From positions 12,152,001 through 12,216,000 of the forward strand of contig CM060733.1 in the NCBI GenBank assembly GCA_030704615.1: a stretch of 64,000 nucleotides of DNA, read 5' to 3'. Source of the DNA: Takakia lepidozioides (taxonomy: Eukaryota > Plantae > Bryophyta). The notes beneath the pieces are model-generated. The model saw only the letters and a list, made by a program, of their open reading frames with translations, did not search any database and was not told the origin of the DNA. Positions 3,235 to 63,149 of the stretch are shown piece by piece. A program made the position numbers and the translations under genes. Within the stretch, counting starts at the first letter, position 1; every line of letters starts with the position of its first letter.

Positions 3235-3899
3235 CACTACAATACAAGCTGGGCTTTTCGACTTTGTATTTGACTCATTTTTGAGTCGTTTGCAACATTT
3301 TTACTCCCAGCCTCCATAGTCGAACATGCGTGACAAAGGTCAAGTCGTTTCAGTCAAGCAGTCGAATCCAGATGCCAGGTTCTGACAGTGAAATGTGACA
3401 GTAAAATCTAGGGGATGACGTGTAGGCAGCACAGTATGACGTGGATGCGACGTGGCTGTCATGGTTTTAGTCATGGTTATCTAGATTACCTACTTCTAGT
3501 TAACTACGACATTTTAGATATTTATATTTATATTTTGTGTGTTGGGACTTCATTTGGTCTCACATGTCAAGTGAGGTGTCGAGCCTCACTTGAGACATGG
3601 AGATAGGTTTTCCCCTTGTGAGTGTTGAGGAGGCTCATCTTCTTGTAGTTGAGCCTCCATGAGCTTCTCTCACCTCCATAGCTCTAGGTATTGAGAGGGA
3701 GTGTGTTGAGGGCTTTGTAGGGTGGATTCCTTTAGCAAAGGTGCCATTGGCTTGACTTAGTTTATGTGATAGAGTGGATTTCACTTGGAATGACTAGGGC
3801 TTGTTCTTCATGTGATTGCTTCATGCTTTGAGAGCTTTCATTGTCTTCTACTTCTCTCATTTCTCATCTCTTATCACTATAAGAAGATCACTTTATGCT

Positions 3900-5010
3900 T
3901 GTGAGTGCGGAGTGTAAGGATTAGTTTTGCACTTGTATTTTAAAGAGGTTGAGAGCTAGGAGAATTTAGCTCTTGTATCACAAGGCTTGCAAGGGGTTGC
4001 AAGGAAAGGTGCTTGAGTATTACATGCACCAAGGAGTTGGAGAGCTTGAGAAGAAAGCTCTTGAGTAACAAGATTTTGCAAGGATTGTAAGGAGGAAGTC
4101 TTGTGTGTGTGGAAGCATGGATTCTAGGGTTTGAGAATCCTTTGTATGCATTATGGAATCGATGGTGTGCGCCATGGCTTGTGGAGAGTGACTAAAGGCT
4201 TGTTAGTGCTCATTTCACTATCAAGCTAGGGTTAAGCAAGTTCAAAGTGTGGATGTTGTGGAAGAGAAGCCAAGGAGCTATATATGTTTGGGCTTGAAGA
4301 CAACAAGGGCAAGCACTTGGAGAGCACTAAGAAGCTCAAGAGGTTTTGAAAGGGAGCATGTGAAGAAATCTTCCAATCATGGTGGTGTGGAGCCAAGCTT
4401 AGGGTGCCATTGGAAGGGCTTGGAGAACACGTGGTGGGAAATCCTTGAAAGGAAATCATCATTCAATGTATGCATAGCTTCACCCTAACTATGTAATGTG
4501 ACAAGAGGGGGAGGCAATACTTGGCTATTCATGCTCTTGGTAGTGCGAGCTTTGTGGTGGATAGTTGACCAAGCAAGTGGTGCATGTGTGGAGCATGCTC
4601 GCTTGAGTTTGTAAGTTCAAGTTTGAGAAGGGGAGCTCTTGAACTAGCAAGAGGTGAAGGCCTTTGAGATCCATTTGTGTGTGAAGTGGAGAGGTGTTGA
4701 TTCATGTTATGATGAAGGAGAGCAACACATAGGCCAAGAGGTCATGAAACATGCATTCAAATGACCACGGGGAGCACATGGATGATGGATTGGTGCAAGA
4801 CCCCAAATGAGGCATATGGCGTGAGAGTGGGATCCAAGGCGGATTGCTTGGGAGCATTATTGTAAGTGACAAGCATTGCTCCTACACATTGAGATAATTT
4901 GTGTTGATTTGGAGCAATTGTCAAGTGATGAGGAGACAAATGCATGATTGCTCGGCATTGGAGATATGGTAGTTTGCAATCAAATCCCAAGGACTAGAAG
5001 GGGGATTGAT
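3900..5010 (+). mobile_element. Highly degenerate Ty1/Copia-like RT/RNaseH remnant
   Basis: Faint motif echo GKHLESTKKLKRF*KG (~4308-4355) resembling copia 'HWxAxKRILRYLKG'; PPT-like AGAAGGGGGA followed by TG near 4996-5008. Confidence 0.35.
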
Positions 5011-5184
5011 TTGGTGGACAATGACTTGCAAGTTGAGTTGGACCACTCTTGGTTGCACATTGGGGTGGAAGAGAGTAAGAAGATGTCTCTTATGACCACC
5101 TAGAGACCATATTTTTGCTTGAGTAGAAGCATAGAAGTCAAGGACTTGCATTCTAGCTCTTCATTACAAACCCTAGTAGTGTAT

Positions 5185-5550
5185 GCTCAGACTATACCTC
5201 TGTTAGTATACCAAACAGGAGCTTGTCCCTTTGACTATACCTCTGTTGAGGTATCACCATATGTGAACCCTAATGTGAGACTATACCTCTGTTAGTATAC
5301 CAAACAGGAGCTTGTCCATTTTACTATACCTCTATTGAGGTATCACCATATGTGAACCCTAATCAGCTCAGACTATACCTCTGTTAGTATACCAAACAGG
5401 AGCTTGTCCCTTTTACTATACCTCTGTTGAGGTATCACCATATGTGGACCCTAATCAGCTCAGACTATACCTCTGTAAAGGTATCATCAACATAAGGGAC
5501 CCTAGCAACCTCAAGTATATCTCTGTTAAGGTATCAACAGTGTAAGGACT
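5185..5550. repeat. Tandem repeat, ~92-bp unit x ~4 with internal ACTATACCTCTGTT dimer, probably within an LTR
   Basis: Units begin at ~5185, ~5277, 5366 and 5458 with near-identical sequence. Confidence 0.9.
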
Positions 5551-6297
5551 TAGTGAAATTTAAGGGCCTTTAGAGGATTGTTTGGAAGATATTTGAGGGC
5601 CCTTGGAAGAGTATTTGGAGGATCTTTGGGGTCCTTGGAGGAGTGTTTGGAGGATCTTTGGGGTCCTTGGAGGACCCTTCGAGGAGCTTTGGTGGACAAT
5701 GTTGAAGAGCTCTTGAAGGATTGATTGAGGGATATTGAAGGATACTTGCCACGGCCATACAAGCGAGTGGATAGAGACAGGAGGGAGAGTAGTGGGATGA
5801 GAGCATTCTGGGGTTAGGAATTGCTTTAGTTTCTCTTCTCCATAGTCTTTCACCCTCTCTGTAGGCCAAAACCTTTCCGTAGGTGGAGGCAAGAGTCAGT
5901 CCGGGTTTGGGCTGGGGTGTCCTTGCAGGAGCGACACTGTGGAGTGTTTTTGGTGTGGGGGAGTTGTTGTCTTGATTTTCTTGTGTTTGGATCCCCTCCA
6001 CACCTGCATGCTTGAGTGTGCACCATGTTAGCTTTGTGTGGGCGCTTGTTTTCATAGGAGGTTGGTCCGGATTTGATCACCGGCCAATCCTAGAGTATGC
6101 TGTCGGTGGTGAGGCTGGAGTGATGACCAGCAAGACCACCAGTGTTTCTTCTATGGTGAGGTTGGGTTGATGACCAGCAGACCATAGGAGTGCTTGCGGT
6201 GGATGCAGGTGCAGGTACAGGTCTACGTTAGAAACCTATTATTCCTGCTTGAACCAGTAGCCGCAACAGGTTCTTTACCCGGTTACCTTGTACAAAG

Positions 6298-6316
6298 TGG
6301 GGATTAGAGACAGGTT
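6298..6316 (+). promoter_or_regulatory. Degenerate primer-binding site (tRNA-iMet type) following a putative 5' LTR end (..GTACA at 6294)
   Basis: TGGGGATTAGAGACAGGTT versus plant consensus TGGTATCAGAGCCAGGTT; lies 3 nt after CA and ~200 nt before the gag ATG. Confidence 0.6.
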
Positions 6317-6510
6317 GACAACCGGTTGGGTTGTGAGTTTTCATCACGGAGGTGCCACCAGCTGCTGAGGGGAGTGCCAACAAGCACCAGCGATACTAGT
6401 GGGTACACAAGACAAGGTGTGCGGTTTAGGCCACTTTCACCTTCAGTGTCTTCTGAGGAAGGTTCGACTCGGAGTAAGGAGGATTCTCGCCGAGGGTGCA
6501 AGTCATTTCC

Positions 6511-7750
6511 ATGCCATTGTTGTGGGACACGATGGAGGAGATGTATGGAGCTACCAAGGGGCCACGTAGGTATTCTGGAGCTATGGGCACCATCGAGCTT
6601 GATGACTTTATACAAGAGTTTGACAGTTGGTGTGATTTGCAGCAAATGCGCAATCCACAACTGTTTACGCCCTTTATGGCGTGGAAGGGGCTATTCCAGC
6701 ACCTTGAGGGGCCGCCCATGGATGATTACCATGAATTTAGGCGGGGACATGCGGTGGAGATTGAGGAGTGGCGAGAGTATTGGTCACCTAACTATGTCTC
6801 AATCACTAGAGGCACAAGGGCAGCGGTGACACCAGCAGCTACACAAACATCTCCAACTACAAGCACTAGTAGTGGAACAAGTAGTGCCGACACTTCTGAA
6901 GGTGGTACCAGTTCAAAAGGTGCTACTACTCCTCCTGCCACAATTACAACACATGTGCCTAGATTCAACCCGGTGGTGGAGTTCTTCTAGGAGTTGCGGA
7001 GGAACTACCAAGGTGTACGGACAAAGAAGCTGCGAAGTTTGCAAGACTTCCAGCGCAAATCCAATGAGAGCTTGCGAGAGGCCTACACTCGTATGAGGCG
7101 CTTGATAAGTGTGACCCAACGGGTTACTGAAGCTCAGGCAGTCCAGTTCTGGTATGGAATTTTGGACAAGGAGCTCAAGAGAAGGGTGCGGGATGCAACC
7201 CTGTTACAAGCGGCCCAACCCACATTAGCGGATGTGTTTCTGCTGGCTGAGCGGATTGAGCTCAACATGGTGGAGGAGCGAGTTGTTACCATTGAATTTG
7301 GCAAGGACATGTCTGCACGAGGTGCAGCTGCCAGCCAACAGGTACAAGGGACTGCCCAACAGCGTGGTCAGGGGGGCAAGGTTGCCCAACCCAAGTTCCA
7401 TGGAGCTTACAGGGGACCTCAGGTGCAGAGGCCCGTGGCATCTTTTGCATGCCAACAGCAACCAGGGGTGTTGGACATGTAGAGGACCCCATGTCAAGAG
7501 AGATTGCCCAGAGAGTGGCAGAAGGCCGGCACAAGCACAGCCTGCACAGTTGCAGTGTGGGCATTGTGGCAAGTATGGTCATGGAGATGCCCAGTGTTAT
7601 GACTTGCACCCTAAGTTGCGCCCAGGCCAGTTCCAAGGGAACAATGGTGGCCGGGGGCAAGGTGGACCAGCCCAGAGAGGACGAGGTGGTCGGGCACGAG
7701 GTGCAGGCCAAGGGCAAGCTCAACATGGCCAAGGACGCGGAGGTAGGGGG
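6511..7750 (+). pseudogene. gag: Gag with capsid-like region and two zinc knuckles
   Basis: LRSLQDFQRKSNESLREAYTRMRRL (major-homology-like); CWTCRGPHVKRDC (~7469) and CGHCGKYGHGDAQC (~7556); Gly/Arg-rich tail; stop at 6988 and frameshifts. Confidence 0.85.
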
Positions 7751-8459
7751 TGTTGACCAAGACATGGCCAACCGGCTTCAACAGCTAGAGCAGAGGCTCG
7801 CTGCCATGGCTACAACTCAGGTGGTACCGGCTCCCAGGCGGGATGGTCCACCTCCTGCTCTTGAGAGAGGAGATATGGGAGGCATGGGATTCATGTGCGG
7901 AGTAGCACTACCACTAGTGCAGGTGGAGTCTGCTGCAGCCGTGACTTGAGGAGCAGTACGAGTTCCTGAGCCACGAAGTGCAGAGGTGGAATTGGATCCA
8001 TAGCGTAGGGAGGCAAGCCGTCAGGCGAGGCTTCCTCAGTCATTCACATTGGCGGAGACAGTGTCGACGCCATCCATGGCACCTAGTTCTCGCCCGACTG
8101 TTACCAAGGCGGAGGTTACTATGCCATTGGGGAGAGCTACACGTGCAGCACTGACACCTGCTACCAAGGCTAGTGCAGCCGGTGTGTTATTGGGGGCAGC
8201 CACCTCTGTGTGTCAAGCCCCACTGTTCTCGGCAACCATGATTGCGACACCGGGGGTAAGACCAGCTGCAGTGTTCAGACTAGCAGCAACACTCTGCGAG
8301 AGTGGGGAGGTCACTTCATCTTCTGCGGAGTTACTGGAAGGTGTAGTGGCAGAGGGATCCTCGGATTTGAGGGTCAAGACTGCCACGGCTGCGCCATGGC
8401 AAGCTGCAGTTGCCAGGTTGATGGAGCTGCCAGCTAGGCCAGCCTTTGAGCGCGCCATG

Positions 8460-8870
8460 GTGACACCTGGAGTTGTCTTGTTAGACAACCAAGGAGGCAT
8501 TTTCACTTTGAGTGGACTGGCAGGCAAGAAGTACCGGCCACTGCGGGTCTTGTTAGACTCAGGAGCTCAGCCACTGATGTTGGGCAGAACTGCTATTGCA
8601 GGTTTGGGCCTCATGGAGGCGGATATGGAGCCTTGTCATTTCCAGATACAAACATCTCTGGGAGGATCAGAGCAGGCTCGGGGCATGACACGGTGTGAGT
8701 TGGCCATTGGACTATAACCAGATCATCCTGTAGATGGCTCAGTGATGCGAGCCAAGGCCATTGTGATAGACGCGGTCTCTTACGATGTCCTTGTTGGTGG
8801 GGCAGTGTTATATCCCATGGGCTTCACCCTGGACTTTTGGGAGGAGTCAGCATCCTACAGGCCTGGATGG
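8460..8870 (+). pseudogene. Retropepsin aspartic protease
   Basis: VLLDSGAQ (catalytic Asp codon at 8556) and downstream YDVLVGG motif; in-frame TAA at 8715. Confidence 0.85.
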
Positions 8871-9260
8871 CAGTCAGGGGATGGTCGTCGTGCACAGCTC
8901 CCTGTGACATTCATTGGGGGTATTGCGGCTGCCCAGCGGGGCAAGATGCCAACACTAGCCGCCTTTACAGCTGCAGTTAGTTGGCCTGGAGAGTTGTTGG
9001 AAGGCAATGCCCATGCAGAGGATGTGCCACCTCCAGCAGAGCAGGATGACATGCATGGTACGACGGAGTTGCCTGCCATGGTTGCTCACACTCCATTATG
9101 GGGTACGAGCAAGGATTTGCAGCAGGCTGCTGATAGACGGGTACAACAAGCCTAGGTAGAGGCCTTCGTACCGTCAGGAGAAGAGGAGAGTGCGGTAATT
9201 GCACCAGGACCACCTCAGTTGTCGCCATTGGACACCACACCTCTTGTGTGGCAGTGCCCG

Positions 9261-10216
9261 GATGAAGGCATATGCCTTCTGGACTTGTTTGGCGGGATCA
9301 GCACTGGATTGGCTGCAGTACTGCAGCCAGGTGTACGAGTTCGACGTTACCTATATGTGGAGAGGGATGAGACTGCATGACACATCTCACTGCGCCATGT
9401 TGCTCAGTTGGTACAGCAGTACCCTGATTTGTTGCCAGTGTCTGCAGTTCGTGGATACCAACAAGCCTTGCCAGCAGACATTTCGTTGCTGGGGGCGCAG
9501 GATTTGGAGTGGGTTGGCTCCATTGATCTGGTAGTGGCAGGTTGGCCCTGCCAAGGGCATTCATCAGCCGGGCATGGCAATGGATTGCGAGACTCGAGGA
9601 CGGGTCTGTTTTGGGAGATGGTGCGGATTTTGCGCCACTTGCAGCTTCATCAAGCTGTATCTCCAGCATACATCTTGGAGAATGTGCCACTGATGGGTGA
9701 TTCTCGGGCCAGGGTGATGGCCAGTGTGCATCAAGTCCGGTCGTGGCTTGGGTCAGCAGTGTTGCTGGATGCAGTTGCATTGGGGTCATGGGCTCATCGT
9801 CCACGGCTATGGTGGACTAACTTGATGCCACCCGCACTGCTCAAGCGTGCATTTGATGGGGTGCAGCGGCCAGCACACCTCACAGTGGATAGCATTTTGG
9901 ACACAGGGAGGCAGTCTCAACGTGTGAGACACGATGACCGTTCGCTTTGGCAGTGGTCAACAGGGTGGGTCAACCACGAGCAGCATTACCTACACTGCTC
10001 AGCTTCCCAGGATCCCATGCTTTTCGGGATAGTGGACCTGGCCTCTTGTGGGATAGCCAGTTGCAACAATTAGTGGAGCCCAATGCTGACGAGCGTGAAC
10101 GGGCGATGGGTTTTACCACAGGTACCATGGCGGTGCCATCTCTTTCTGAGGCATCACGTCGTCAGGTGTTGGGGCAAGCAATGGATCTCAATTGCTTGAC
10201 CTGGATTATCAGCTTG
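9261..10216 (+). pseudogene. C5-cytosine DNA methyltransferase domain (DNMT3-like motif pattern) inside the pol polyprotein
   Basis: Motif I LDLFGGISTG (9279), II YLYVERD, IV DLVVAGWPCQGHS (Cys 9549-9551), VI YILENV (Glu 9678), VIII AHRPRLWWTN, IX ERERAMGF, X RRQVLGQAMDL (10157); stop TGA 9378, frameshift ~9945. Confidence 0.93.
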
Positions 10217-10644
10217 GCTATGGCTGAGCAGCGCAGAGTACGGAGTACACTTCCCTTCATGGTCTCCCTACCTACCGAGACGGTACAGGCAGCGAGTGGG
10301 GGCAAGCAGGTGAGGACCACGAGGTGCAGGCCGCATCCATGGCACACGTGGGAGGTGCTTGAGGTTCAGAAGGAGTTGGCAGCCAAGGCGGCGGTGATGG
10401 ATCAGGTTGGGGATTTTTCTCGGATTGAGGAGGTCCTCAAGGATGGGATGATGGGGCAGGATGAGACATTGTCACTGACAGAGGAGGCAGTGGTCACTAC
10501 TCAAGAGGTTGCAGCATAGCAACCACGGGACGCGTCTTCTACCTCTAAGCTTGCTGGACTCAAGGTTGCAGTCACGGAGGACAACTGGGAGCCTGATGTT
10601 GGACCTATAGTCACCGGAGAGAGAGACGACGTATACGGCGGTTC

Positions 10645-12020
10645 TTGAGGGCTTACAGGAACTGCTTTGCCCTCAGTTTGAAGGACTTAGGAGCACTGAA
10701 GGGTCAAGAGATTCGCATTGAATTGGCTACTGACACGCCAATCTTTCGGAGACCCTATAGATACAGTGACATGGAGAGGTCCTTGATTCAGATGAGAACT
10801 CAGGACCTCTGGGAGGCTGGTTTGGTGGAGCTATCTGGGGGAGAGTATGCTTCAGCCACAGTGATGCCAGCCAAGAAGGATGTCTTTGGCAATTGGACGG
10901 AGAGACGTATGTGCGGTGATTACCGGCCTGTAAATCGTCAGACCAAGTCCGATAGGTATGCCATGCCAACACCAGAGGAGATCTTTGATGCCATTGGGCA
11001 TGCCAAGGTCTTTAGCACGTTGGATTTACGATCCGGATATCACCAGTTGCCGATCAAGGAGGCGGATAAGCAAAAGACGGCATTCTGGGGGATCAATGAG
11101 CACGGGAAGGATTGCCTATACCAGTGGCGGATCTTACCATTTGGGCTTAAGAACGCTCCGGCAGAGTTTCAGAGAGTCATGGACAGGATTCTAGCAGGGG
11201 TGGAGTTTGCTCGGTGCTACATAGATGACATCATCATCTTTAGTGCTACGGTGGAAGAGCATGAGAGACACCTTCAGGGGGTATTTGAGCGCTTGAGGGC
11301 GCACGGATTGAAGTTACATCCGGGAAAGTGCAAGTTTTTCCACAACCAGATTGAGTATCTGGGTCACATGATATATCCTGGAGGATTGGGGGTACAGCAG
11401 ACTAAGGTAGAGTCCATGGCACAGGTTCCACGCCCCACGAATGTGAGCCGAGCTCGAACTTTCATTTGGTTAGCAAACTATTATAGACGGTTTGTTAAGG
11501 GATTTAGTGCCATTGCAAAGGCTCTAACCAAGCTGACCAAGGTGGACCAGGAGTGGCAGTGGGAAGATGAGCAAGAACAAGCTTTTCAAGAGCTCAAGGC
11601 GAGGTTGACCTCGGCGCCCATCTTGAGACGACCTATCAGGGGGCGTCCTTTTCAGCTGCATACAGATTGGAGCATGCTGGGGCTTGGAGCGGTGCTCACA
11701 CAGGTGGATGATGAGGGAAGAGAGTTCGTAGTGGCTTATGCTAGCCGCTCGAACAACGTTGCAGAGTCTAAGTATAGCTCATATGAAGGAGAATGCTTAG
11801 CTGCAGTGTAGGCCATGACACACTTCAGGTGCTATCTATACGGCAATCTCTTCACCCTTGTCACGGATCACCAACCACTCAAGTGGTTGATGGAGTCAGA
11901 CAAGCTTACGGGGAAGCTTGCACGGTGGGTACTCATCCTTCAAGAGTATGACTTTCAGGTGGTGCATCGACCGGGTTTGGTCAATCGCAATGCAGATGGG
12001 TTGAGTCGCAATCCATGCAC
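10645..12020 (+). pseudogene. pol: Reverse transcriptase and RNase H (Ty3/Gypsy)
   Basis: RMCGDYRPVN, LDLRSGYHQL, LPFGLKNAPAEFQR, YIDD (11218-11229), LHTDWS, YSSYEGECLA, TDHQPL, NADGLSR; stop TAG 11809. Confidence 0.96.
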
Positions 12021-12369
12021 GAGCCAGCAGGACGACACTGAGCTCGGTGGCATGGTGAGACGGACGAGGAGATGGTGCCCGGATGGCATGCATCTGCATT
12101 TCTGTGTATCTTGGCAGCGGAAGGCCAGTTTGGACTTGCAACAGGGATGACTATAGATCAAGTGTCTGAGGACCCTGAGGCCAGCAATGAGCAAGGTGGC
12201 GCCAAAGATATACATGAGGATTCAGTTGTGTTGGACTACCTCCGCACTGGAGATACTGCAGCCGTTGTGACTGCCAAGGAGAGGGATCGGATCCTACAAC
12301 GAGCCAAGAGGTTCAAGTGGGAGGGGACACACCTGCTCCGAGTGTGGGAGGATGGTCGAGTGAGGATTG

Positions 12370-13500
12370 TGCCTCACCCAACACAGCGGGCACGGTTAGT
12401 GCGGCATGCCCATGAGGAGTTGGGGCATTTTGGGGTGCGACGCACTCATAGTCTACTGCAGGGGCAGTATTGGTGGCGTGGTATGCACACAGAGGTGCAA
12501 CAATTTGTGGCTAGGTGCATGGTGTTTGACAGGGTGCGTGCTTCATTCAACGCCCCTACTCCACAATTGCACCCTCTTCTGATCATGGGATTGGGCTACA
12601 GGTGGAGTCTTGACTTCGCAGGGCCGTTGCCACTGACCATGCGCCACAACAAGTACGTGTTGGTGATGGTGGAGCACTTCTCCAAGTGGATTGAATTGGT
12701 TCCATTGCCTGATAAGGCTGGTGAGGGAGCTGCGTATGCATTCTTGGATTGTGTGCTTAGCCGATTCGGTGCTCCAGCTGAGGTACTCACGGACCAAGGG
12801 AGAGCGTTCTTGGGGGAGTTTTAGGCTTTGTGTGACAAGGCATTGATAGACCACCGCACCACTTCTCGGGATCATCCTGAGGCCGATGGCTTGACAGAGA
12901 GAGTTGTTCAGACAGTAAAGAGGGGTTTGCGCAAGTATGGCTTGCAGAAGGGACACCTAGGAGATTGGGACCTTCAGTTACCCTGGTTAGCCATGGGCTA
13001 CAGGTTCAGCAAGCAAGCATCACTTGCCTCCTTCTCACCATACTTTCTTCTCTTTGGCCGAGAGCCGGATTTGCCTACATCCATTCGCAGAGAAGCTGCT
13101 ACAGTTCTTAACCTTGACGATCTGGACGTGTGGGCACGTGCATGTGAGCAGCGTGCAGAGTTGTTCAAGAAAGTCATGCCTATGGCTTTCGAGAACCTTG
13201 CCATTGCACAACATCGTGATACGTTGAGGTATGTTACCATACGTGGTGGGGGCTATCGTCCTGGGGTTCGGAGATTCAACCCTGGTGACTATGTTTATCT
13301 GCAGCAGACTGCTCCTACGACCTTGGATGTGACTGCAGGACGTACTATTTTGAGGGTTCGAGAGGTGTTGCCCTCAGAAGTCCTGATCTTGGAGGGTCGG
13401 GATGGCATGATTTGGAAGGACCATGTGCGTAATTGCGCGCCATGTCACCTTCCAAATGTTGATGGAAGGGTTGACCCAAACCTGGCAGTGGTACCTGCAA
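12370..13500 (+). pseudogene. Integrase (HHCC zinc region, DDE core, C-terminal extension)
   Basis: HEELGHFG..YWW..RCMVF; WSLDFAGPL; LTDQG; HPEADGLTERVVQTVK; SPYFLLFGREP; stop TAG 12822. Confidence 0.93.
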
Positions 13501-13508
13501 GTTTGAGG

Positions 13509-13652
13509 TGCATGTTGTGTGGGTCTGCTAGAGGGGCAGCCACCATGCTGGTGTGTGATCAATGCTCTAGAGGTTGGCATATGGGATGCTTGACTCCACC
13601 TCTTGAGATGGTTCCTGATGGGGATTGGTTATGTCCGCATTGCATTGGATAG
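13509..13652 (+). pseudogene. PHD finger (C4HC3) at integrase C-terminus
   Basis: CMLCGSARGAATMLVCDQCSRGWHMGCLTPPLEMVPDGDWLCPHC followed by stop 13650-13652. Confidence 0.93.
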
Positions 13653-13898
13653 TGGGAGTGGATACAACCATGGAAGGCTAACAAGAAATGCAAGGCCAAG
13701 CTACTAGGAGACCAACACACGAGATCCTGACTCAAGTTCACAGATTGCAAGACGACAACTAACGATGGGGTTGCTCTTGTACCCGGCCTCTTGGTCTATA
13801 GAGTTTGAGTACAATAGGGACAGTGATAGAGGACTTAGTACGGCTGTGGCTATTACATCTTGTAGCTATCTGGAGTTAGAGGGACCTAACCACCAGCT

Positions 13899-13994
13899 AG
13901 GGGGGCGATTGTGGTATAGCTTTCTAGGATTGTGTGCTTAGATTGTGTGGTGGACAGCGATGTATGTTGTGGCACGATGCTTAGGTGCACGACA
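13899..13994 (+). promoter_or_regulatory. Polypurine tract and start of 3' LTR (TG at 13910)
   Basis: AGGGGGGCGA-T-TGTGG; same junction in the second copy at 62624-62639. Confidence 0.7.
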
Positions 13995-14689
13995 TGGCTA
14001 TGATGTGGCTATGACGTGTAGTAAAATGGTTTAACTGAATTATAAGGTGGATGCATGACGTGTAGTGAGTGGCTCAAGGGCAGAGTGACGTGGATACATG
14101 ACGTGTAGTAAAGTGGTTTAACTGAAGTGGAACATATTGACTACGTTCTATGATGTTTAGTATACAGTTTGACTGTAAATCAGTGACAGTGAGTTTGCTT
14201 GACTTTGTATAGTATAATATTCTAATGTGAAGCAGTAAAAGAGGACACATTTTAGTAAATATGTTTCACGGGGGTATATATACATATAAATATAAAAATA
14301 CATGTATATTGTATATTTATATATACAATATATATATATGAATTGGGAGGTTTTTATTTAATATTTGGTTTTTTTTGTTTATTACTGTTATTTCGTTTTT
14401 TTCATTTACTTTTAGTTTATATCTGTACGTATGTGAATTAGTGGATATTGTATTTAATTTTTTTGATTCGTTGCACTGCATTGAAAATATATTACAAATA
14501 CAACAAAACATAGAATACAAATACAGGTCGGAACCAAAAACATTTGGATGGCTCAAAACTGGTTTATATCAAGAGTGTTTTGCTAAACAAGTTTTGGCCA
14601 TATTCTACAAATGACCAACATGAGGGCCATGTTGCCATATCCATAGATCACTGCCCAACTGAAGTCATTGAGTAATGATAATCTGCTGT

Positions 14690-17600
14690 GCAGCTAGGTC
14701 CAGCACTATCGTGGATGACACCACATCTCGTTCAGCCATAGTGTTGAAAACTCCCTTCGCATCCTTAATGCACCCACATTTGGCATACATGTCCACTAGG
14801 GCAGTGTTCAGAATGACATCTCGTACAAATCCAACTTTGACGATGTCACCATGGACCTCTTTCCCCTTTTCCAGAGCTCCTAGCCTTGCACATGCATGGC
14901 AAACACAAACAAATGTGATGTGGTTGGGTTTCACCCTTCGCGCAGCAGTTGCTCATAGGTTTCCAAAGCACTCCTACCACACCCATCCTTGGTAAATCCT
15001 GCCAACATTATATTCCACGTGATCAAGATCGTTGAGGCACTCTGTGGAAAACCTGGTGAGCATCCATGATGCTCCCACACTTAACATACATGTTGACAAG
15101 GGTGTTGAGTAGAAAAATATTTGGCGTTAATCCACTTTGGATAATGTGAGTGTGCACCTGTTTCAGCTTCCAGACCTTTTCATCTTCATGCACTTAAGCA
15201 AGAGACAGACAGACGTATCTGAATCTGCTGAAATGCCTTGTTGGTTTAAAGTTGTAGAGCCTCTGTCAATCTGCCTGCCTCACAAAGCATCTTCACATGC
15301 CCAGTAGAAGAAGCATTGTGGACTCCCTCTCTTGATCCTCTTTCAGAAGCTGTGGTCATGGTTGAGGTGCTTGATTTTATCAACTGTGCCGCTGCAGCTA
15401 CTACCTTTACTTGACCATCTACCCATGCAGCAGGTTTCTTGTAGCTATTGATCCACATGGAATCATAGGTAATCTGGAGCTTGAAATCCAGCCCTCTTGG
15501 ATGAATCTGGACCCACACTCTATCCCTGCCCCTTCAACTATCCATACCTCTGCACAAATCATGCATACATCCTTGCCTTGCTGCTCGCAGCTGACAATGA
15601 CAACCTATAATTGTTCCAGCAAACACCCCAACCCTACTTATCACACTAGTTCAAAGTCACTCCAAACCACCACAGATCCACCCAATGAGCTAACTTACAG
15701 AATTCAATATGCATCTCAGGGCCAAGTCTGATGAGGGGGCAAAACAGGCTGCAACAGGTCAAAGAAGAAGGTGCCCTCACCACATTGTCCTTGACCCATG
15801 GAGGATTTGACCGAGCATCAACCCAAAATGACCTCTTGTGTGTGATGTTTGTGTCTGTAGTCAGGAAATGTTGGATTGGTCTGTGAGAACCACCACGGTG
15901 CAGCTGAGCAGGCAGAGATTGAAACACGGCCTACTAAGACCAAGCTGACTCTCCCAAGAACCTTGTAAACATCAGGAAGAACACCAAATCATGGTACTAA
16001 CAGGAGCCAAGAGCCCACCTTTGCAGGATGGACAAACTTCTTCACATCGTACATTAAGAAAAGCCACACCTTGTGATTGCGGTTGTCCCACCATCGTGAA
16101 GAATCTTTATAAAACTCACGCCAGCTCACATCATGAACGAGCTAACTTGCAGAATTCTACATGAAATTTAGGGACGACTCTGATAACATGGCAAAACAGG
16201 GTGAAATGTATTGAAGAAGGTGTCTTCATTAGCAGCGAATTGTTCTATCAATAGGGCTGCTGCCGCTTCTATTTCCAGGATGACATCCGGTACAATTCCA
16301 GCTTTGACAATGTCACTATGGACCTCTTCCCTCTTTTCCAGAGCTCCCAGGCTTGCACACGCATTGCAAACACAAACAAACGCGATGTGGTTGGGCTTCA
16401 CCCCTTCACGCAACATTTGCTCATAGGTCTCCTAAGCATTCCTACCACACCTACGCTTGGTAAATCCTGCCAACATAATATTCCACGTGGTGTTGAGTAG
16501 AAAAACACTTGGTGTGAATCCACTTTGGATAATGTGAGTGTGCACCTGTTTTCCAGCTTCCAGACCATCCATCTTGATGCACTTAAGCAACAAACAGACA
16601 TATCTGAATCTGCTGAAATGCCTCCTTGGTTTAGAGCCTCTGTCAGTTTGCCTGCCGCACAAAGTATCTTCACATGCCCAGAAGTGCTAGAAGAGGCATT
16701 GTGGACTCCCTCTCTTGATCCTCTAATTTCAACGGTTGTGGTTATGGTTGAGGTGCCTGATTTTATCAACTGTACTGCCACTGCAGCTGCTGCCTTTAGT
16801 TGACCATCTACACATGCAGGTTTATTGTAGCTACTGATCCACCTGAAATCAAGGTAATCTGGAGCTTGAAGTCCAGCCCTCTTGGATGAATCTGGACCAC
16901 ACTTTATCCCCGCTCCTTCATCTATCCATGCCTCTGCACAAATGATGCATACATCCTTGCCTTGTAGCTGATAATGACAGCCTAGATTTGTTCTAGGAAA
17001 CACCCAACTCAGCTTATTACACTAGTTCCTATACTGAATTGCGTCTGCTACTCTCCTGTAATCTAACAAGCATTATCATTTTTGCCTGGTGTCCCACCAT
17101 TGACTGGGGTCAGAAAAGTATTCATTCCACAGCTTCTTCTCATCTCTGTTATGTATTTTTGGATACTTTCCTGTTGTCACAGTGGCAGTATCATGTCAAA
17201 GTCACTCCAAACTACATTCACTCAACCAGCTAAATGTTTTGAAAATGAAGCGACCGCCTATGCTGGCGGTCGCTTATTTTTTTTATTTTTATTTTTAATG
17301 AAGTGACCGCCTATGTTGGCGGTCGCTTATTTATTTTAAATGTTTTGAAAATGAAGTGACCGCAGAATTCAACATGGAAATTCAGGGCTGATTCTGATAA
17401 GAGGGAAAAACAGGGTGAATGTGAAGAAGGTGCCTTGATTACCAGTGCCTAATTTTATCAGTTGTGCCGCTGCTGCTGCGGCATGACAGTTGACCGTCTA
17501 CCCATGCAGGTTTCTTGTAGCTATTGATCTACAGGAAATCATAAGTAATCTTGTGCTTGAAATCTGGCCCTTTTGGATGAATCTAGACCTAGTCTCTATC

Positions 17601-18520
17601 CCTGCTCCTTCAGCTATCTCTGCCTCTGCACAAATCATGCACACATCAGGGGAGCTAATGACAGGGGAGGAGGGCATGGCAATTCGAACCAGGGTAGGGA
17701 AGCTCAAATATTGTGCTCATGAGGATATGGCAGAGGGTGGATCCTCAACTAAAAATTTGCTGGCCTTTGTGGAGGATCTCAACTCTCAGATTGTGCAGAC
17801 CAAGACTTTGCAGGAAGAATGATTGATTGTTGACACTGTCTCTTGCATGCCCTAAGATCTGAAAATCAAGTTGAAAAAGAAACCACGTGACTCTGTTCAA
17901 CCCATCTGCTGAAGGCCTTAAGAGACATTTAGGGCCAGTTCTGATAAGAGGAAAAAACAGGGTGAAATGTGTTGAAGAAGGTGCCTTGAGTAGCAGTACC
18001 TGAATTTTATCAATTGTGCCGCCGCTGCTGCTGTTGCGGCTTCCAGTTGACCATCTACGCATGCAGGTTTCTTGTAGGTATCATTCCACAAGGATTCATA
18101 GGTAATCTGGAGCTTGAAATCCGGCCCTCTTGGATGAAACTGGACCCACACTCTATCCCTGCTCCTTCGGCTATCCATACCTCTGCACAAATCATGCATA
18201 GTACCTCCTAGCAGCTGACAATGATAGCATAGATTTGTTCCAGCAAACACCCTAACCCTACTTCTCCCACTAGTTCCTATGCTGACTTGCGCTTCCAACA
18301 GGCATTCACCTTTTTGCACCAACGTCGAGCTAACTTGCAGAATTCAACCTGAAAATTTAGGGATGACTCTGAATCCTGATAACAGGGAAAACAGGCTGAA
18401 ATGTGTTGAAGAAGGTGCTCATATGTCTGCAAAGCCTCCATCCCGCGCCAGCTGTGCATATCCTGCAATCATCGCACTCCACGACACCACATCTCGTTCA
18501 GCCATACTGTTCAACACTCC
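14690..18520 (-). pseudogene. Mosaic of inverted PPR-locus fragments (5' module x4 plus PLS motifs) with short unrelated fillers
   Basis: Minus-strand ORFs KPNHITFVCVCHACARLGALEKGKEVHGDIVKVG, YVCLLLKCIKMDGLEAGKQVHTHIIQSG and AERDVVSWSAMIAGYAQ closely match 1-2100. Confidence 0.88.
17232..17363. repeat. Short tandem repeat containing hairpin AAGCGACCGCC-N6-GGCGGTCGCTT
   Basis: About 2.5 copies of a ~50-bp AT-flanked palindromic unit. Confidence 0.75.
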
Positions 18521-18879
18521 TTGCTGTCTCCGCTCTAAAGCTCCCATATAGCACACGTTGTGACAATGGCCGACACAACAAGAGCAAACATACAGGTCGA
18601 TCCCACAAACAGTACACTCACTGCGGGGCACTTCTCTCTCTCTATTCTCTCCTCCCCCCGCCCACCTGCTCTCTCATGTGCACACGGCAAGATACTAGTA
18701 TTTTAGAAACCGCTTATCCTGGTTCGTGAACCTTAAGAAAACACAGATGGTGGCACAAAGACAAACAAACGCTAAGTCCCTAAGCGCTCTTGAACCACGC
18801 CGACCCAAAAAACACAGAGTCCCAGCCAGGCTACACACTGCGACCTAGCAACCCTAAACTTGAACCAAGTGCATTATCA

Positions 18880-19140
18880 TCCGTTCATACATTCATACAA
18901 TAGTTGCCAGCAAGGCGTTTTCTTTATCGTTCGTTCATACGTTCATCCAGTGCACAAAAATTATATTTTATACGTTCATCCAATAGCTGCCAGCAAGGCG
19001 TTTGTTTATCACTCGTTCAGGTAATTCAGTTGTTTTCTTACATTAACCTTTCATACGTTCATCCAATAGCTGCCAGCAAGGCGTTTGTTTATCATTCGTT
19101 CATATAATTAAGTTGTTTTGTTTCACTAACCTTAACCAGC
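18880..19140. repeat. Subterminal tandem repeats of the large CACTA right arm
   Basis: TTCATACGTTCATCCAATAGCTGCCAGCAAGGCGTTTGTTTATC-like unit x3. Confidence 0.7.
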
Positions 19141-19455
19141 ACACGATTAGTTTACTATTAATGTGCTGGGTCAGTGAAAAAATAATAATTATTTTTACTT
19201 CTTATTATCCACATATATATTGCTATATAATTTATATATTGTGATTACAGGTGCCATTGTTTAACTGGTTGTCTCAGTCAGCTCATTTTAGGTAGTCAAA
19301 GTCTCTCACCACAGTCAAAATTTTCGCGGTTGTCTAGCACCTCGAATATTTTAATATAAATTTTGACTGCAAAATGGTTGGAACAATCGAAAGTGACAAC
19401 ACTCAACGCCAGCGTCAAACTAAATCGTCGAAATTACATAGGGTGTGTTGTAGTG

Positions 19456-19805
19456 GAGGGGTTAGAAAGGAGCCAGATGACAAGTTGCATCCTAGAATTA
19501 AGGAGATCCATGCTGAGCTGAGAAGATTATCTGAGCAGATGAAGGAGGCGGGGTATGTGTCTGACACACGTTTTTTATTGCATGATGTGGAGGACAGAAA
19601 TTTTCTCTTTGCCACCAGAGTGAGAAGCTGGCCATTGGTTTTGGGCTGATCAGCACGACTAATCAAGAATCTTTGAGTGTGTGGAGACTGCCACACCTCC
19701 ACCAAATTCATGTCAAAGAATGTTGCCCGAGCAATTGTTGGATGGGACGCTAACTACTTCCACCACTTTGAAGATGTGATTTGTTCTTGTGGTGATTAGT
19801 GGTGA
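19456..19805 (+). pseudogene. E+/DYW deaminase domain of the split PPR gene
   Basis: GVRKEP..DKLHPRIKEIHAELRRLSEQMKEAGYVSDTRFLLHDVE; QSEKLAIGFGLIST (HxE His altered); VCGDCH; FHHFEDVICSCGD*W*. Confidence 0.93.
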
Positions 19806-20611
19806 AATGATGTTTTCTTGGAAAGATGCTAGTGTCTTGCTTCATTCATTGATCTTTGTAGCTACTCAGACCATCCACCATTTCCTGAGAGTACTGACCA
19901 TCATGTACTGTTGAGTGCAAGATGCAAGTGTTTTGCTTCATTCATTGATTTGTGTAGCTACTCAGACCATCCACCATTTCCTGATAGTGGGGTCTACCCG
20001 GCATAGGTGGGAAGTCAGCTCACAATTGCACTTGACTGCAGGGGTGATTTTTGATTGATTCTGGTGATAGTGGATGGAAATCAGAGTGCTTTCCTAATTC
20101 TGGGTTTGGGTGGTGGAGCTTCTCCAAAGCTTGAAGATGGAAGTGAATACGAATTTTAATGAGCTTGATGAGAGGGGCAGCCCTGTGCACAAGTTTGTTC
20201 AGCATCTTAAATTTGGACATGTTTGTTTGTTTCTCGTGGTGTGGCTTTGGATGGAGCCTTGACGAACTTGCATGAATATTGTCAAAAGCTATCCTTAAAA
20301 CACCAAGATCCAATCCCATGGTGGATGCGTGAAAGTTCATATAGTGAATGTAAGGGTATTTGGGTATTTTGTTATTGATTGATGCGGCTTGTGAAAATTG
20401 AACATTGAAATGCAGATCCGCCATTTTTCTTCCAGAAAAAAACAAAACACGGGATCCCTACACCGTGGGGATGACCCACCCCTTTTTTGTGAATTTTTTT
20501 ACGTAGTTCTCATAATTCGTCGCTAGTAGTGCGGAGCAACGCGAAGCCCTAGTGGTTATTTCTCCTATCAAGAGTTGGTTCTATAACGATTTTTTCAAAT
20601 CAAAATCTGAC

Positions 20612-22071: not shown

Positions 22072-24480
22072 ATGGCTTGGCAACCCATCCAGCCCCAGGT
22101 TTGTACTTCCAGGCCCAGGTCATTTCTGCATCTAAGGCAGGTCCAGGGTTGCGTCTAGGGTTGGTGCTTTGGTGCTTACGGCCTTTGGCACCTTAACCAA
22201 GGGTTGGTGGTATGATTGCAGGGATCTGCTGGAGGAGGGTATAACGAGTTTGGAGTGCAGCCAGGTATGCAGAGGCCACCAGTAGGAGGCCCTCCAAACC
22301 CGTTGAATGACGTGCTCTATGGCGCTGTGGGTGATTATGGGCAGAGGTTCTTTGGCACCAGTAGGCAATATGTTCAAAGCAATGTATGCTTGCTCCTCCC
22401 TCTCCTTCCTTGGCCTTGATTCCAGTTTATTTATAGAAAATCAGTTGCACAGTTGAGCTATGGTTTGTACAGCTAGACACTCTTCAGAATGTAAGCTGCG
22501 TTTGCAGTTTTCCGTTCGAGATTTAATTTGTTCATTTAAATTTCAGCATTAGACATCCTGTTAGGTATGGATGCATGAGAGGAGGGTATACAAATGTAGT
22601 TATATCCTTAATCAAAACATTGAGTAGTTGTGTTTTGAGGTATCAATTTGGGTGTCTGAGCATTCCAATTATCAATGTTTCTATTGTCTAACCTATTTTC
22701 TGAGGTTCTTAATGTCATCCAAGGAATTGAGTTGCTTATGGAAAGTGGGTAACAGGTGAGCAAGTATTTCGCAACTCATGATGTTCAGTACTACTTCCAA
22801 GTGAATGACCAATATGTGAAGAACAAGCTGAAAGTGGTGCTCTTCCCATTCCTTCATAAGGTCCAGCCTCCGTGCTCTGAACCTCCTCATCTCTGCATTG
22901 CGCAAGAAAGTTAGTTGATATCAATAAATCTATTGCATGGATGTCATGTATGGTTTGGACACTGAAATTGACAACTTGAAGCCGGGATAAGATGGCCGCT
23001 TTGATTTACTTTACTTTTCTAGTACGTCAGCGTCTGGTGGTGATGACCTGCCCACTAGCCGATATAATTCTCCCCCAAACCACCTTCAGAGTCTACGGTG
23101 AGTCCATCTACCAATGCGACTGACTTTGGACCCATGTAGATAGATGTACCCCATTACGAGCTATCCTCCGATGTGAGTCGTCCGTGCAAGTTCAGTATGG
23201 AGGGATGCAAGTTTCATCAATTGGGTAGGCACTAGATTGTCGTAGGAACCCTGGAGATCATCGTGGTATCCATCTGGACCCAGGGCCCAACATATGGCTC
23301 ATGTGAATTTTATGTGTGATCTGTAACTTGGCTGGGACAGCATCCACAAGGCAAGTTGCATGAAACCTATCCAACTGAACTGGTGAGCCAAGAGCTTTAT
23401 TTCCATCTCCCCTGGTTCGCTATTTCTCCCTTTACTGCATAATCTCTCCATCTGGCTGCTGAGTCCTCAGAACTATGGTGCTTCTAGGCTCACAAGAACT
23501 TGCAACCGGGGTGGTAAGTAGCAGGCCAAGGGTTTAATCCACATGGTCCAAGGAATGCAATGTTGTTGTCTTATGTGTGCTAGTGGTTACTGGCATAAAT
23601 GTTGCATTGGTGAAGTACAATTAAACAGGCAGCCATCTTCTCCCAGTTCTCACCTGATTTTATCTGCATATACAACTGTTGGGTATTGAAGTGATAGTTG
23701 GGTGGGAGAGGTCCTCAGGGCCATTGGACGCGGATAGCAGAGCAGGTGGCGGGGGGCCTGAGATACAAGCCACCGCGCCATGATATCAATGCGCCCGACC
23801 TCTACGTCCCTCTCATGGCTTTTGCTACCTATGTTGTCCTCTGTGGTCTTGCCCTGGGTATTACTGGCAAGTAAGTCCTTTTCTTACCTGTTTTTCTTTT
23901 GGAAGGATTATGTTTCTAGTAGGGTATTGTAGGCAACTCCACTGTAACCCTTGTGAAGTATTCAGTGGCCCATTCGAACAGCCAAAGAGTAACGTTAGAA
24001 ATTTTGTCGGTAAAAATGGGAAACAATTAGCGGTGTTGGCATCGTGCATCATGCAAGCTTAATGAAAAGTATTGTGGTGATATGGAATGGCACTGTGACA
24101 GATTCACTCCCGATGTGATGAGCGGACAGTTCACAAAAGCGTTGATTGGGTGGACGGCGGAGACTGTGCTGCTGAAATCCATGCTGTTTGCTTTGCACAG
24201 TGGAGATGCACCGACCTTGGATGTGGTAGCCTATGGGGGTTATGCATTTATCGGAGTGTGTGTCTCACTAATGGCCCGCATGCTATCGGATTATGCCTAC
24301 TACGTTGTTTGGCCATGCACCGCCGTGTGTATGGGTACGTTTCTGGTGAAGACCATGAAGAGATTATTGTTTGCCGAGGCAAGGAGTTATGATAGAGATT
24401 CCACCAGGCATCACTACGTTCTCCTTCTCATGGCAGTGGTTCAGTTTCCTCTGTTCTACTGGCTGGTACGTGTTAGGTAG
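22072..24480 (+). CDS. YIF1: YIF1 family ER-Golgi membrane trafficking protein, ~5 exons (22072-22098, 22222-22383, 22757-22860, 23719-23871, 24102-24480)
   Basis: [25 protein letters not shown]; [21 protein letters not shown]; [13 protein letters not shown]; GT-AG introns; first exon tentative. Confidence 0.9.
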
Positions 24481-60300: not shown

Positions 60301-61353
60301 GGGGTTGAATATCATACCCAGCACAAACATATCTAGCTAAACTGCGCACAACAGACATCTCATCAAATCCAGCGAACATATGGAAATCGACTCAATCTAC
60401 ATCATGAAGTCCCTGAAGACATACAAAATGTCAAAAAGGCATTTTTGCCACCAATTCCCACCCAATCCGAAAACTCAAAACAATCTCGTGTAGCTAAGAC
60501 ACCATCTCCACCACTGGTCCTCTCGAGTTCATGTCTGGGCATAGTCATACCAAAGACTTGACTCGCACGTTCCTCCGAATTTCCTACTGCCTATGCTCTC
60601 CACCCGCACCTAAAGTTCCTCAAAGACCTCACCTGCAAAAGCAGAACGCCTCCCACAACGCCAAATGCAGCCCTCCTCCTTCGTGCAGCGGTGGCAGCCC
60701 ACAGGCCATCATTGACATAGATCCCAAGGATGCCCGTGGCTGTTGCAGAAAATGCTAGACGAGTGAGAGCGGAAGACAGGAACTGGCCCCAGATGCCAAC
60801 CAGGCCACACAGCAGCAACAGCGCCCGCGACCACGCGTGCCCCTGCAAGTAGGACCGCAGGAAGGGGTGTGCCAGCACTAGTGCGGACGTAAACAGATAC
60901 ACCATAAACCCCGCCTCTGTTGCTATCCCTGCTTTTTCTAACTGGAACCAATACACATTGCGTACGAACTCCACCAGGGCTGTCCAGTATATCAGAGCCA
61001 CATAGGCCTCTCCCCATAGCTGCGCTGACGGCTGTAATGCTGCTACCCATTTCCATTTCCTCCATGTTCTTGTCTGCCACTTGACCCTGCATTAGGCTAC
61101 ACATGCCTTTGTTTAAGCAAGCATATCTTGCTCTCAGAGAATCACATCGACACACAAGACAATGTGCATACATAGAAACAGAAATGCGCATAAAGAGGCA
61201 CCTTGACAGAATGGGAGAGCGGGCGGGTTGCAACAAGGAAGCTGCGCGAGTCCAGGCATCATTTCCTTGCGAGCAGCAATCTGGAGTCCCATGGTGCCCA
61301 TCTCCGTCTTCGTGCAATTCCGAACCCTGCCAACCTGTATGAAGCGCAGTCAT
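57372..61353 (-). CDS. CWH43/PGAP2-interacting-protein-like multipass membrane protein with C-terminal endonuclease/exonuclease/phosphatase domain
   Basis: Many TM segments; LRVLNFNIQQGF; HVIMLQETD..HGNLDL; YSPATKGDTWGCAMLS; VHLVNTHFG; PLVLAGDFN. Confidence 0.75.
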
Positions 61354-61820
61354 CACTTCCCTGTTCCCAGATCACAAGCTCATCACTTTACGGATCAGAC
61401 AGATCGGTCCCGCGCCTGGATCATCAGCTGAGCAGCGTGGGTTGAAGCTCTGCCCGATCACTGCATTCACTGTGTGAATTCTTCGTCCTACCCGCTTCTC
61501 ACTTATGACTTGTCGCACGGACAAGCAGCAGGCTACGGGGTATATTATATACTGGTATATACTGTACCAGTATATACCAGTATGAACTAGACTACCGTAC
61601 TTACCTAGCTTATTAGGCAATAATTAATTTAAAATCAAATGCCTGATTAAATTTAGAACATTTTTGGAAAATGTGCCTAAAACTTGGAAAAAATTACGCA
61701 GAAGGGCCTAATTGCTCGAAAATTGTGAAAAAAAACCAAAATGTCCAATTATGTAGATAAAATGTCTAAATTGTATTGTTTAAAGTCCAAAAAATGGCAA
61801 AAATTGCATACAATTTAAAA

Positions 61821-62706
61821 GCTGCAGTAGTTCTTAATCTTGACGATCCGGATGTGTGGGCACGTGCATGTGGTCAGCGCGCGGAGTTGTTCAAGAAAAT
61901 CATGTCCATGGCTTTCGAGAACATTGCCATTGCACAACATCGTGATACGTTGAGGTATGCTACCATACGTGGTGGGGGCTATCGTCCTGTAGTTTGGAAA
62001 TTTTACCCTGGTGACTATGTTTATCTACAGCAGACTGCTCCAACGACCCTAGATGTGACTGCATGACGTGTTATTTTGAGGGTTCGAAAGGTATTGCCCT
62101 CAAACGTCCTGATCTTGGAGGGTCGGATGGCATGACTTGGAAGGACCATGTGCGTAATTGTGCGCCATGTCACCTTCCGAATGTCGATGGCAGGATTGAC
62201 CCAAACCTGACAGTGGTACTTGCAAGTTTGAGGTGCATGTTGTGTGGGTCTGCTAGAGGGGCAGCCATCATGATGGTGTGTGATCGATGCTCTAGAGATT
62301 GACATATGGGATGCTTGACTCTACCTCTTCAGATGGTTCCTGATGGGGATTGGTTATGTCCGCATTGCATTGGATAGTGGGAGTGGATACAACCATGGAA
62401 GGCTAACAAAAAATGCAAGGTCAAGCTACTAGGAGACCAATACACGAGATCTTCGCTCAAGTTCACAGATTGCAAGACGGCGACTAACGATGGGGCTACT
62501 CTTGTACCCGGCCTCTTGGTCTATAGAGTTTGAGTACAATAGGGACCGTGATAGAGGACTTAGTACGGCTGTGGCTATTACATCTTGTAGCTATCTAGAG
62601 TTAGAGGGACCTAACCATCAGCTAGGGGGGCGATTGTGGCAGACTACTATGTGTGGTGTGGTTTGGACAGCGATGTAGTTGTGTAGCGATACGTATGTGC
62701 ACGACA
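61821..62706 (+). mobile_element. 5'-truncated second copy of the PHD-Gypsy family (integrase C-terminus, PHD, 3' UTR, PPT, LTR start)
   Basis: Near-identical to ~13094-13914; LTR TG at 62635. Confidence 0.93.
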
Positions 62707-63149
62707 GCTGTCAAGTTAAATAAACACAGTGTGAAACTAACTAGAATAAATCTAGTTATTTGTATTTAACATTTAGAATTAGTTCAAGTGTTAAGTCAGG
62801 TGTCAAGTTTAGCTTGACACTTAAATCATCTTATCTTCACGAGCTCGTCAGTCGTGCGGCTCATCTCTCTCGAGTTGAGCCTGCACGACTGAGCTCCATC
62901 GTTGCTTAACATCTGAGTGTACTTATGGAGGGAGAGTAGGATGTTGTGAGGTGGAGTCCCCATAGCTTGGGGTGCCCCTGGCTCGACACTTATTTTAAAG
63001 AGTGATTGTGTTGTATTTCGTGTTTTTGTGTCAACAAACAGCGTGAGTTTAGTTTTCATATTATTGTGGTAGACTACTTTATTGTGCATATATGTGTGGT
63101 GTGGTTTGGACAGCGATATAGTTGTGTAGCGATACGTATGCGCACGATA

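Follow-up and report, generated by a model that had tools for sequence, protein, structure and literature searches.

A decayed Gypsy-DNMT3 retrotransposon from a likely moss host, with a DNMT3-like domain at the end of ORF1 ahead of a conserved, predicted leaky stop

Described systems and the element in the window

Retroelement-borne DNMT3 enzymes accompanied by split repeats are already known, and the family that we describe here is a variant of the kind found in Klebsormidium. According to the accessible portion of de Mendoza et al. 2018 (PMC5890265), the KnitGypsy-Dnmt3 element of Klebsormidium nitens carries its DNA methyltransferase (DNMT) in the same open reading frame (ORF) as reverse transcriptase (RT), and the SymbioDIRS-Dnmt3 elements of dinoflagellates combine a retroelement-borne DNMT3 with split direct repeats. 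The same source reports that the Symbiodinium DIRS DNMT3s methylate CG de novo in yeast and that the Klebsormidium domain gave no methylation there, a result that its authors called inconclusive. DAM-LTRs and EpiLTRs, as presented in the available part of bioRxiv 10.64898/2026.05.21.726589, are LTR elements that also pair a DNA methyltransferase with a chromatin reader; unlike the present family, however, they involve an adenine methylase, a DNMT4-related enzyme and a chromodomain, and their authors call them distinct from "streptophytes (Gypsy-DNMT3)." In the available parts of that preprint and of PMC12344493, streptophyte Gypsy-DNMT3 elements are mentioned and land plants are not named. "Marchantia" does not occur in the text and three supplementary files of PMC5890265 that were searched, and the accessible portions of PMC6317226, PMC9033089, PMC11982613 and 10.1101/363937 do not describe the element. 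A literature search that left aside figures and most subscription papers returned no paper on land-plant copies, on the leaky stop or on the PHD finger; supplementary trees may include bryophytes.

The window (the whole stretch of DNA analyzed, 64,000 nucleotides) contains at 3457-13994 a degenerate Gypsy-DNMT3 copy belonging to an abundant Ty3/Gypsy family, in a host that is likely a moss. The copy itself is dead. Its features, together with those of a second copy in the same window, are as follows.

3453..3456, no strand: left target-site duplication, TGGC; 4-bp duplications also occur at related loci
3457..13994, + strand: decayed Gypsy-DNMT3 element, 10,538 bp, form A-internal-B, ends TGTC...GACA
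3457..3875, + strand: terminal repeat A, 5' end; 3' limit inferred from a run X6 contig and the layout of relatives
5189..5476, + strand: tandem repeat, 3 copies of ~90 nt, in the long 5' leader (repeat search)
6532..7750, + strand: gag, zinc-knuckle-like motifs; reading frame interrupted by stops and two frameshifts
8478..8900, + strand: aspartic protease, active-site Asp codon at 8556, in-frame stop at 8715; weak Pfam match, aligns with protease-bearing relatives
9258..10228, + strand: DNMT3-like C5 cytosine methyltransferase domain; stop at 9378 and frameshift near 9944 in the window copy
10517..10525, + strand: ORF1 stop, TAG CAA CCA (CAR-YYA context), predicted leaky; consensus from PMC2754532 and PMC2194720
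10520..11950, + strand: RT and RNase H; frameshift near 10618 and stop at 11809 in the window copy
12380..13200, + strand: integrase, zinc-binding and core domains; frameshift near 12040 upstream, stop at 12822
13509..13643, + strand: PHD finger, C terminus of ORF2 (PF00628, E 5.7e-11)
13899..13905, + strand: polypurine tract; the same G-run precedes repeat B in relatives
13908..13994, + strand: terminal repeat B, ends GACA (window and relatives)
13995..13998, no strand: right target-site duplication, TGGC, flanking the GACA end
61819..63149, + strand: second copy, 5'-truncated, with integrase end, PHD and B-A-B; 90.6% identity over 902 bp

In its TG...CA ends, target duplication and polypurine tract the element shows canonical LTR Ty3/Gypsy traits, and 4-bp target duplications were present at all six related loci in which both ends were found (two of these, L035 and L038, may be one insertion). 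Paired direct LTRs around the coding region were not found within the window; relatives carry split repeats instead, and these are complete, as A-coding-B-A-B, in L035, L038, L045 and L047. The main window copy has one A and one B only, a shorter A-internal-B form shared with L006 and L054, and the second copy retains a 3' B-A-B. The two window copies differ in their A repeats, which show weak similarity to each other. In placing the 3' limit of A we relied on one contig from run X6, which joins a match to 3847-3875 directly with the B repeat at 13908. The B/A junction of the second copy is near-palindromic (62700-62713), as it is in seven related loci; it resembles a right end joined to a left end, and this look suggests a circular or tandem intermediate. 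By eye, the TGG start of a tRNA primer-binding site was not seen after repeat A in the window or in four relatives. The second copy lies directly upstream of the integrase sequence of another Gypsy element (63006-63879).

Traits of DIRS and Ngaro elements were not found, since the element has 4-bp duplications and encodes an rve integrase instead of a tyrosine recombinase. SymbioDIRS-Dnmt3, with its tyrosine recombinase and dinoflagellate hosts (accessible text of PMC5890265), thus differs from the window family, which has a DDE integrase, target duplications and a PHD finger. The likeness to KnitGypsy-Dnmt3 is closer. As far as the available text of that report goes, the two share the Gypsy domain set, an intronless, non-permuted DNMT3-like domain, A-coding-B-A-B repeats and purifying selection, and K. 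nitens KFL_013780020 has the same order of knuckle, protease and DNMT (36% and 46% identical to two pieces of the window). They differ in that the DNMT of KnitGypsy-Dnmt3 is described as sharing the RT ORF and that of the window family ends ORF1 before a conserved stop; moreover, the window family is abundant and lives in a land-plant host. We therefore treat it as a related variant of KnitGypsy-Dnmt3 and not as a member, its DNMT lying outside the RT ORF. New features are the occurrence in land plants, a DNMT that closes ORF1 just ahead of a conserved CAR-YYA stop, split repeats that occur together with 4-bp duplications, and the PHD finger.

The host was placed from one gene. A YIF1 exon (24103-24477, within 24031-24480) is 72-76% identical to Sphagnum and Physcomitrium and 60% identical to Amborella among 14 hits, and it groups with mosses with a UFBoot of 100 in a tree that holds no named liverwort, hornwort or fern. 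Fragments encoding PPR proteins with an E+ motif flank the element; they form degenerate clusters in opposite orientations on either side of it (1-2250 and 14600-19650) and appear highly repeated in the runs. Elsewhere in the window we noted a PGAP2-interacting (CWH43-like) gene with long exons on the minus strand (57372-61091), an ORF with a TFIIS-type zinc ribbon (34229-34612) and short tandem arrays at 18876-19131 (period ~83 nt) and 19823-19988 (period ~96 nt).

The methyltransferase domain and its family

A preliminary description of this locus, made from its letters alone, had reported six C5-methyltransferase motifs in canonical, non-permuted order and without introns. All six were located at 9279-10183 (I at 9279-9296, IV at 9540-9554, VI at 9678-9686, VIII at 9798-9815, IX at 10097-10114 and X at 10169-10183), and their order and lack of introns are as described. 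The Pfam check proposed in that description, run over 12 ORFs, returned PF00145 (E 5.6e-13; 49.4 bits, the cut-off being 22). Downstream of it lie RVT_1, RNase H, integrase and PHD, an arrangement that agrees with the Gypsy order PR-RT-RH-IN and with the placement of the domain between protease and RT. Identity as a DRM enzyme was considered and rejected, given that DRM motifs are circularly permuted and motifs I to X of the window are not.

When the relative P0004 was compared with solved structures, DNMT3A/B came first, followed by DRM, HhaI/HaeIII and DNMT2; a 40-sequence profile searched against the PDB gave E values of 6e-27 for DNMT3A, 3e-15 for DRM, 2e-10 for HhaI and ~1e-5 for DNMT2. 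The stop-free domain of relative L001 was modelled (pLDDT 93.6), and the model matched DNMT3A with a Foldseek E value of 1.3e-19 and a Z score of 29.0 (rmsd 2.6 over 274 residues), against a Z score of 24.6 for HhaI. The catalytic Cys, the ENV motif and the residues of motif VIII are invariant or at least 90% conserved in the 40-sequence alignment. Judged by these alignments and by the predicted model, the domain is closest to DNMT3 in both sequence and fold; because host DNMT3 is absent from our trees, the term "DNMT3-like" refers to similarity and fold. In one such tree, without host DNMT3, the retroelement DNMTs (K. nitens P0121 included) group together against phage enzymes with an SH-aLRT of 100. 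A phage or bacterial origin was also rejected: 30 viral loci match weakly, and phage methyltransferases are distant, at 28-48% over short stretches. The base composition of the element bears no mark of self-methylation, as its CG depletion (0.48) is no stronger than that of the flanking host gene (0.36).

The DNMT occupies the same place in dozens of loci from several genera. A homology search for longer relatives yielded 43 proteins, the top ones from Calypogeia, Marchantia and Sphagnum at 65-74% identity; a profile-free scan of 1.84 billion representatives gave 77 matches at E values up to 1e-30; and in a metagenome scan at least 56 loci were confirmed among at least 599 pattern matches. Among these close relatives are ordinary gene annotations of Marchantia polymorpha (e.g., Mp_4g09160 and Mp_8g17980). 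In contigs of run X1 the DNMT region is about as deep as the RT region, depth here not being a copy number, and a single 5-kb contig of run X6 covers DNMT through PHD. Related copies from public runs lack the breaks that the window copy has near 9944 and 10618. In comparisons between families, the DNMT gave a dN/dS of 0.08-0.12 in five of eight pairs, against a Ka/Ks limit of 0.2 for purifying selection; of the remaining pairs, one saturated pair gave <0.17, one near-saturated pair 0.27 and two decayed copies of one family 0.41. The corresponding between-family ranges were 0.04-0.17 for RT and 0.20-0.60 for the linker. Taken as sequence evidence, these values indicate that the DNMT is a fixed module of a high-copy Gypsy family and under purifying selection. 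The preliminary view that it is a retroelement domain and not a host gene is borne out by the depth in X1 and by its shared position in relatives; so is the proposed extension of the system into embryophytes, with YIF1 pointing to a moss as the likely host and relatives present in Marchantia, Calypogeia and Sphagnum. Its suggested kinship with the charophyte system of de Mendoza et al. also stands, on the domain set and repeats shared with what the accessible text of that paper describes.

The RT of the window falls in a clade (FastTree support 1.00) with Calypogeia, L001, L043, L087 and a Coleochaete transcript, and three K. nitens RTs fall outside it. Among 68 proteins with DNMT and RT in one ORF, the DNMT precedes RT in 30 (Closterium among them) and follows RNase H in 38, one of the latter from the chlorophyte Scenedesmus. 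The module has thus changed its place in pol, and its range extends to chlorophytes. The arrangement of these 38 proteins, among them P0052, P0054 and P0061, is a second architecture, RT-RH-DNMT-IN-PHD, to which a Tudor-like domain is added in some. Three Marchantia models (P0009, P0014 and P0022) also carry DNMT and RT in one protein; we read these as gene-model splices because P0009 has no linker. The sole match in prokaryotic genomes, L087, is a complete Gypsy element. The bin that holds it is a cyanobacterial one from a metagenome, and P0030, a related protein, is labelled Obscuribacterales; both prokaryotic labels likely reflect contamination, with L087 being plant or algal DNA in the bin.

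The end of ORF1 and its stop

The gag region gives a weak Retrotrans_gag match (E 0.004, below the cut-off) and is 52-61% identical to the Marchantia ORF1 protein P0006. ORF1 of the window is interrupted by in-frame stops at 8715, 9153 and 9378 and by the frameshift near 9944, which puts motifs IX and X in another frame than motifs I to VIII. The preliminary description had assigned all of the motifs to the protease frame and had this frame run on towards RT, making the enzyme a pol domain. Motifs I to VIII do share the protease frame, with those three stops between, and motifs IX and X do not; the rest of the claim had to be given up. The frame ends at TAG 10517-10519, a stop kept in relatives, so that the DNMT closes ORF1 and lies outside the RT ORF. 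We consider the DNMT, on comparative sequence grounds, to be the C-terminal domain of a Gag-PR-DNMT protein, with a conserved stop between it and RT.

In the L001 family, where 58 sequences were searched, 44 of the 45 loci that cover the stop site have TAG (35) or TAA (9), some of these loci probably being one insertion assembled twice; CAG occurs at the site in none, and in almost all of them the stop is followed by CAACCC, which departs from the consensus by a single base. In four runs, variants at positions 10515-10525 all stay below 5%, and coverage of this bin in X1 is among the highest. On both of these grounds we rejected the decay of a CAG codon as the origin of TAG 10517. L043 and L087 have ORF1 and ORF2 open and split by a single in-frame stop (TAG CAG TTA and TAG CAA TCA, respectively), and L036 matches L043 at the stop. 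CAR-YYA thus follows the stop in three of four divergent lineages (the window, L036/L043 and L087), the fourth being the L001 family with its CAACCC, and ORF2 is in frame with ORF1 across the stop in all four. Within the element, CARYYA occurs at 0.3% of positions. Database ORF1 proteins of the window clade (SH-aLRT 95.2) end 59-183 residues past the domain. As given in the accessible parts of PMC2754532 and PMC2194720, CAR-YYA is the readthrough signal of TMV, and the former reports 32% readthrough for the TMV context in a plant reporter. Folding of seven sequences gave no support for a stimulatory RNA stem downstream of the stop: Z scores were -4.5 for L087, -2.1 for L043 and +1.3 for the window, the four remaining sequences lying between -0.15 and -0.56, and control stretches of L087 score low too (-2.8 and -3.2).

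With the TMV-type (type I) readthrough signal and with the stop-separated retroelements MuLV, SIRE1, RIRE2 and Tca2, as far as the available sources describe them, the window family has in common an in-frame stop that sets the ratio of two products, and the CAR-YYA context. The window family differs in that its stop follows the protease and an enzyme domain, which would put the methyltransferase in the abundant product. A similar split may be wider in K. nitens than described. There, P0121 (KFL_013780020) ends just after the DNMT, and P0222 (KFL_013780010) comprises RT-RH-IN; their gene numbers are consecutive, and each lies on a 7,497-bp contig. Four further relatives end at the same place past the DNMT. 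An element annotated in this way, as two genes split after the DNMT, suggests that some copies may depart from the published account of one ORF.

Possible roles of the enzyme and of the PHD finger

The preliminary description mentioned neither the PHD finger nor the split repeats nor the 4-bp target duplication. The best PDB matches of the PHD finger are CHD4, PHF12, KDM5B (PHD1), KDM5A, ATXR5, DPF3, PHF21A, BAZ2, UHRF1 and AIRE. Most PHD fingers among these matches read H3 tails that are unmethylated at K4. The motif is present in 10 of the 14 loci that reach the polypurine tract.

The anatomy of the element, its conservation and the selection on it are established; on readthrough, catalysis, packaging and target we infer the following. 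We lean, with modest confidence, to a reading in which the DNMT ends Gag-PR-DNMT and is made at Gag level, and RT-RNase H-integrase-PHD arises by readthrough of the leaky stop, with the window holding a decayed copy from a likely moss. Gag-PR-DNMT would be the main product, and a rarer readthrough product would add RT-RH-IN-PHD. Because most ribosomes would halt after the DNMT, each particle should receive DNMT and Gag in a ratio of about one to one, with RT far scarcer. Inside the particle the DNMT would be freed by the protease and could methylate newly reverse-transcribed DNA before integration. Given its resemblance to readers of H3 unmethylated at K4, the integrase-borne PHD finger would steer insertion away from active promoters and to H3K4-unmethylated chromatin, and the new copy would arrive already marked like resident methylated host chromatin. 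Because sister lineages fuse the DNMT with RT or place it after RNase H, the module does not depend on expression at Gag level. A broader reading, which we put forward tentatively and hold to be possible without favoring it, is that of an ancient green-lineage clade, abundant in mosses and liverworts including Marchantia, that would combine a leaky-stop, Gag-level DNMT3, premethylation of cDNA, PHD-guided insertion and split-repeat replication. The element would then carry a writer-plus-reader pair spread over two ORFs, parallel to the catalytic and ADD domains of DNMT3.

It might be supposed, from the broken state of the window copy and its distant phage relatives, that this copy picked up, in a single event, a fragment of a host or bacterial methyltransferase that has no role. 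The preliminary description had allowed for such an event; relatives keep the DNMT, with dN/dS at 0.08-0.12, and its constant position in dozens of loci from several genera refutes the idea, to which we give practically no credence. ORF2 could also be produced from the same anatomy by termination-reinitiation, from a separate transcript or by splicing, with the DNMT still made along with Gag. Past the stop, an AUG comes at codon 3 in the L001 family and at codon 5 in L036, so reinitiation is allowed in these lineages; one Coleochaete transcript is annotated with ORF2 alone, and Candida Tca2 expresses pol independently of gag translation (PMC2194720, accessible part). However, ORF2 of L043 and L087 offers no in-frame AUG before codon 117, which lies inside RT, and the frame is kept across the stop in four lineages and CAR-YYA in three despite nearly saturated synonymous sites. 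We regard expression of ORF2 by these routes as rather unlikely, and readthrough as the preferred explanation.

Where the enzyme acts, and on what, can also be viewed differently. It is conceivable, if improbable in our judgement, that the DNMT works in the nucleus, methylating integrated copies or the insertion site as self-restraint or local chromatin control, and that it may add to host methylation. Synthesis at Gag level would supply a large excess of enzyme, the element appears to encode a histone-reading PHD finger as well, and de Mendoza et al. raise both host benefit and accidental genome methylation in the accessible text of PMC5890265. Against this, the DNMT itself lacks a chromatin-targeting domain, and the PHD finger is encoded by the other ORF. 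Furthermore, fusion to Gag directs a protein to particles, as general retroelement biology has it. That the domain is kept for nucleic-acid binding or RNA modification and not for C5 methylation of DNA seems to us less plausible still, even though the Klebsormidium domain was negative in yeast and, in the same accessible text, RNA methylation is suggested for LINE-borne enzymes; the catalytic residues are conserved over divergent families, and sequence and fold are far nearer to DNMT3 than to DNMT2. Methylation of new cDNA in the particle by a Gag-level DNMT remains our preferred, conditional reading.

The role of transposon-borne cytosine methyltransferases has been an unsettled question since 2018, the known hosts being difficult experimental organisms. 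Marchantia polymorpha is a genetic model in which the Mpmet mutant derepresses transposons, and since close relatives of the element are annotated in this species, the question of their role is directly testable. For bryophyte genomics, counts of DNA methyltransferase genes include Gypsy-DNMT3 elements, and LTR finders that require paired LTRs would miss such elements. The conserved stop, for its part, is a candidate for natural readthrough in a plant retroelement, and it changes the model of the system: the enzyme would be abundant and not limited to the level of RT.
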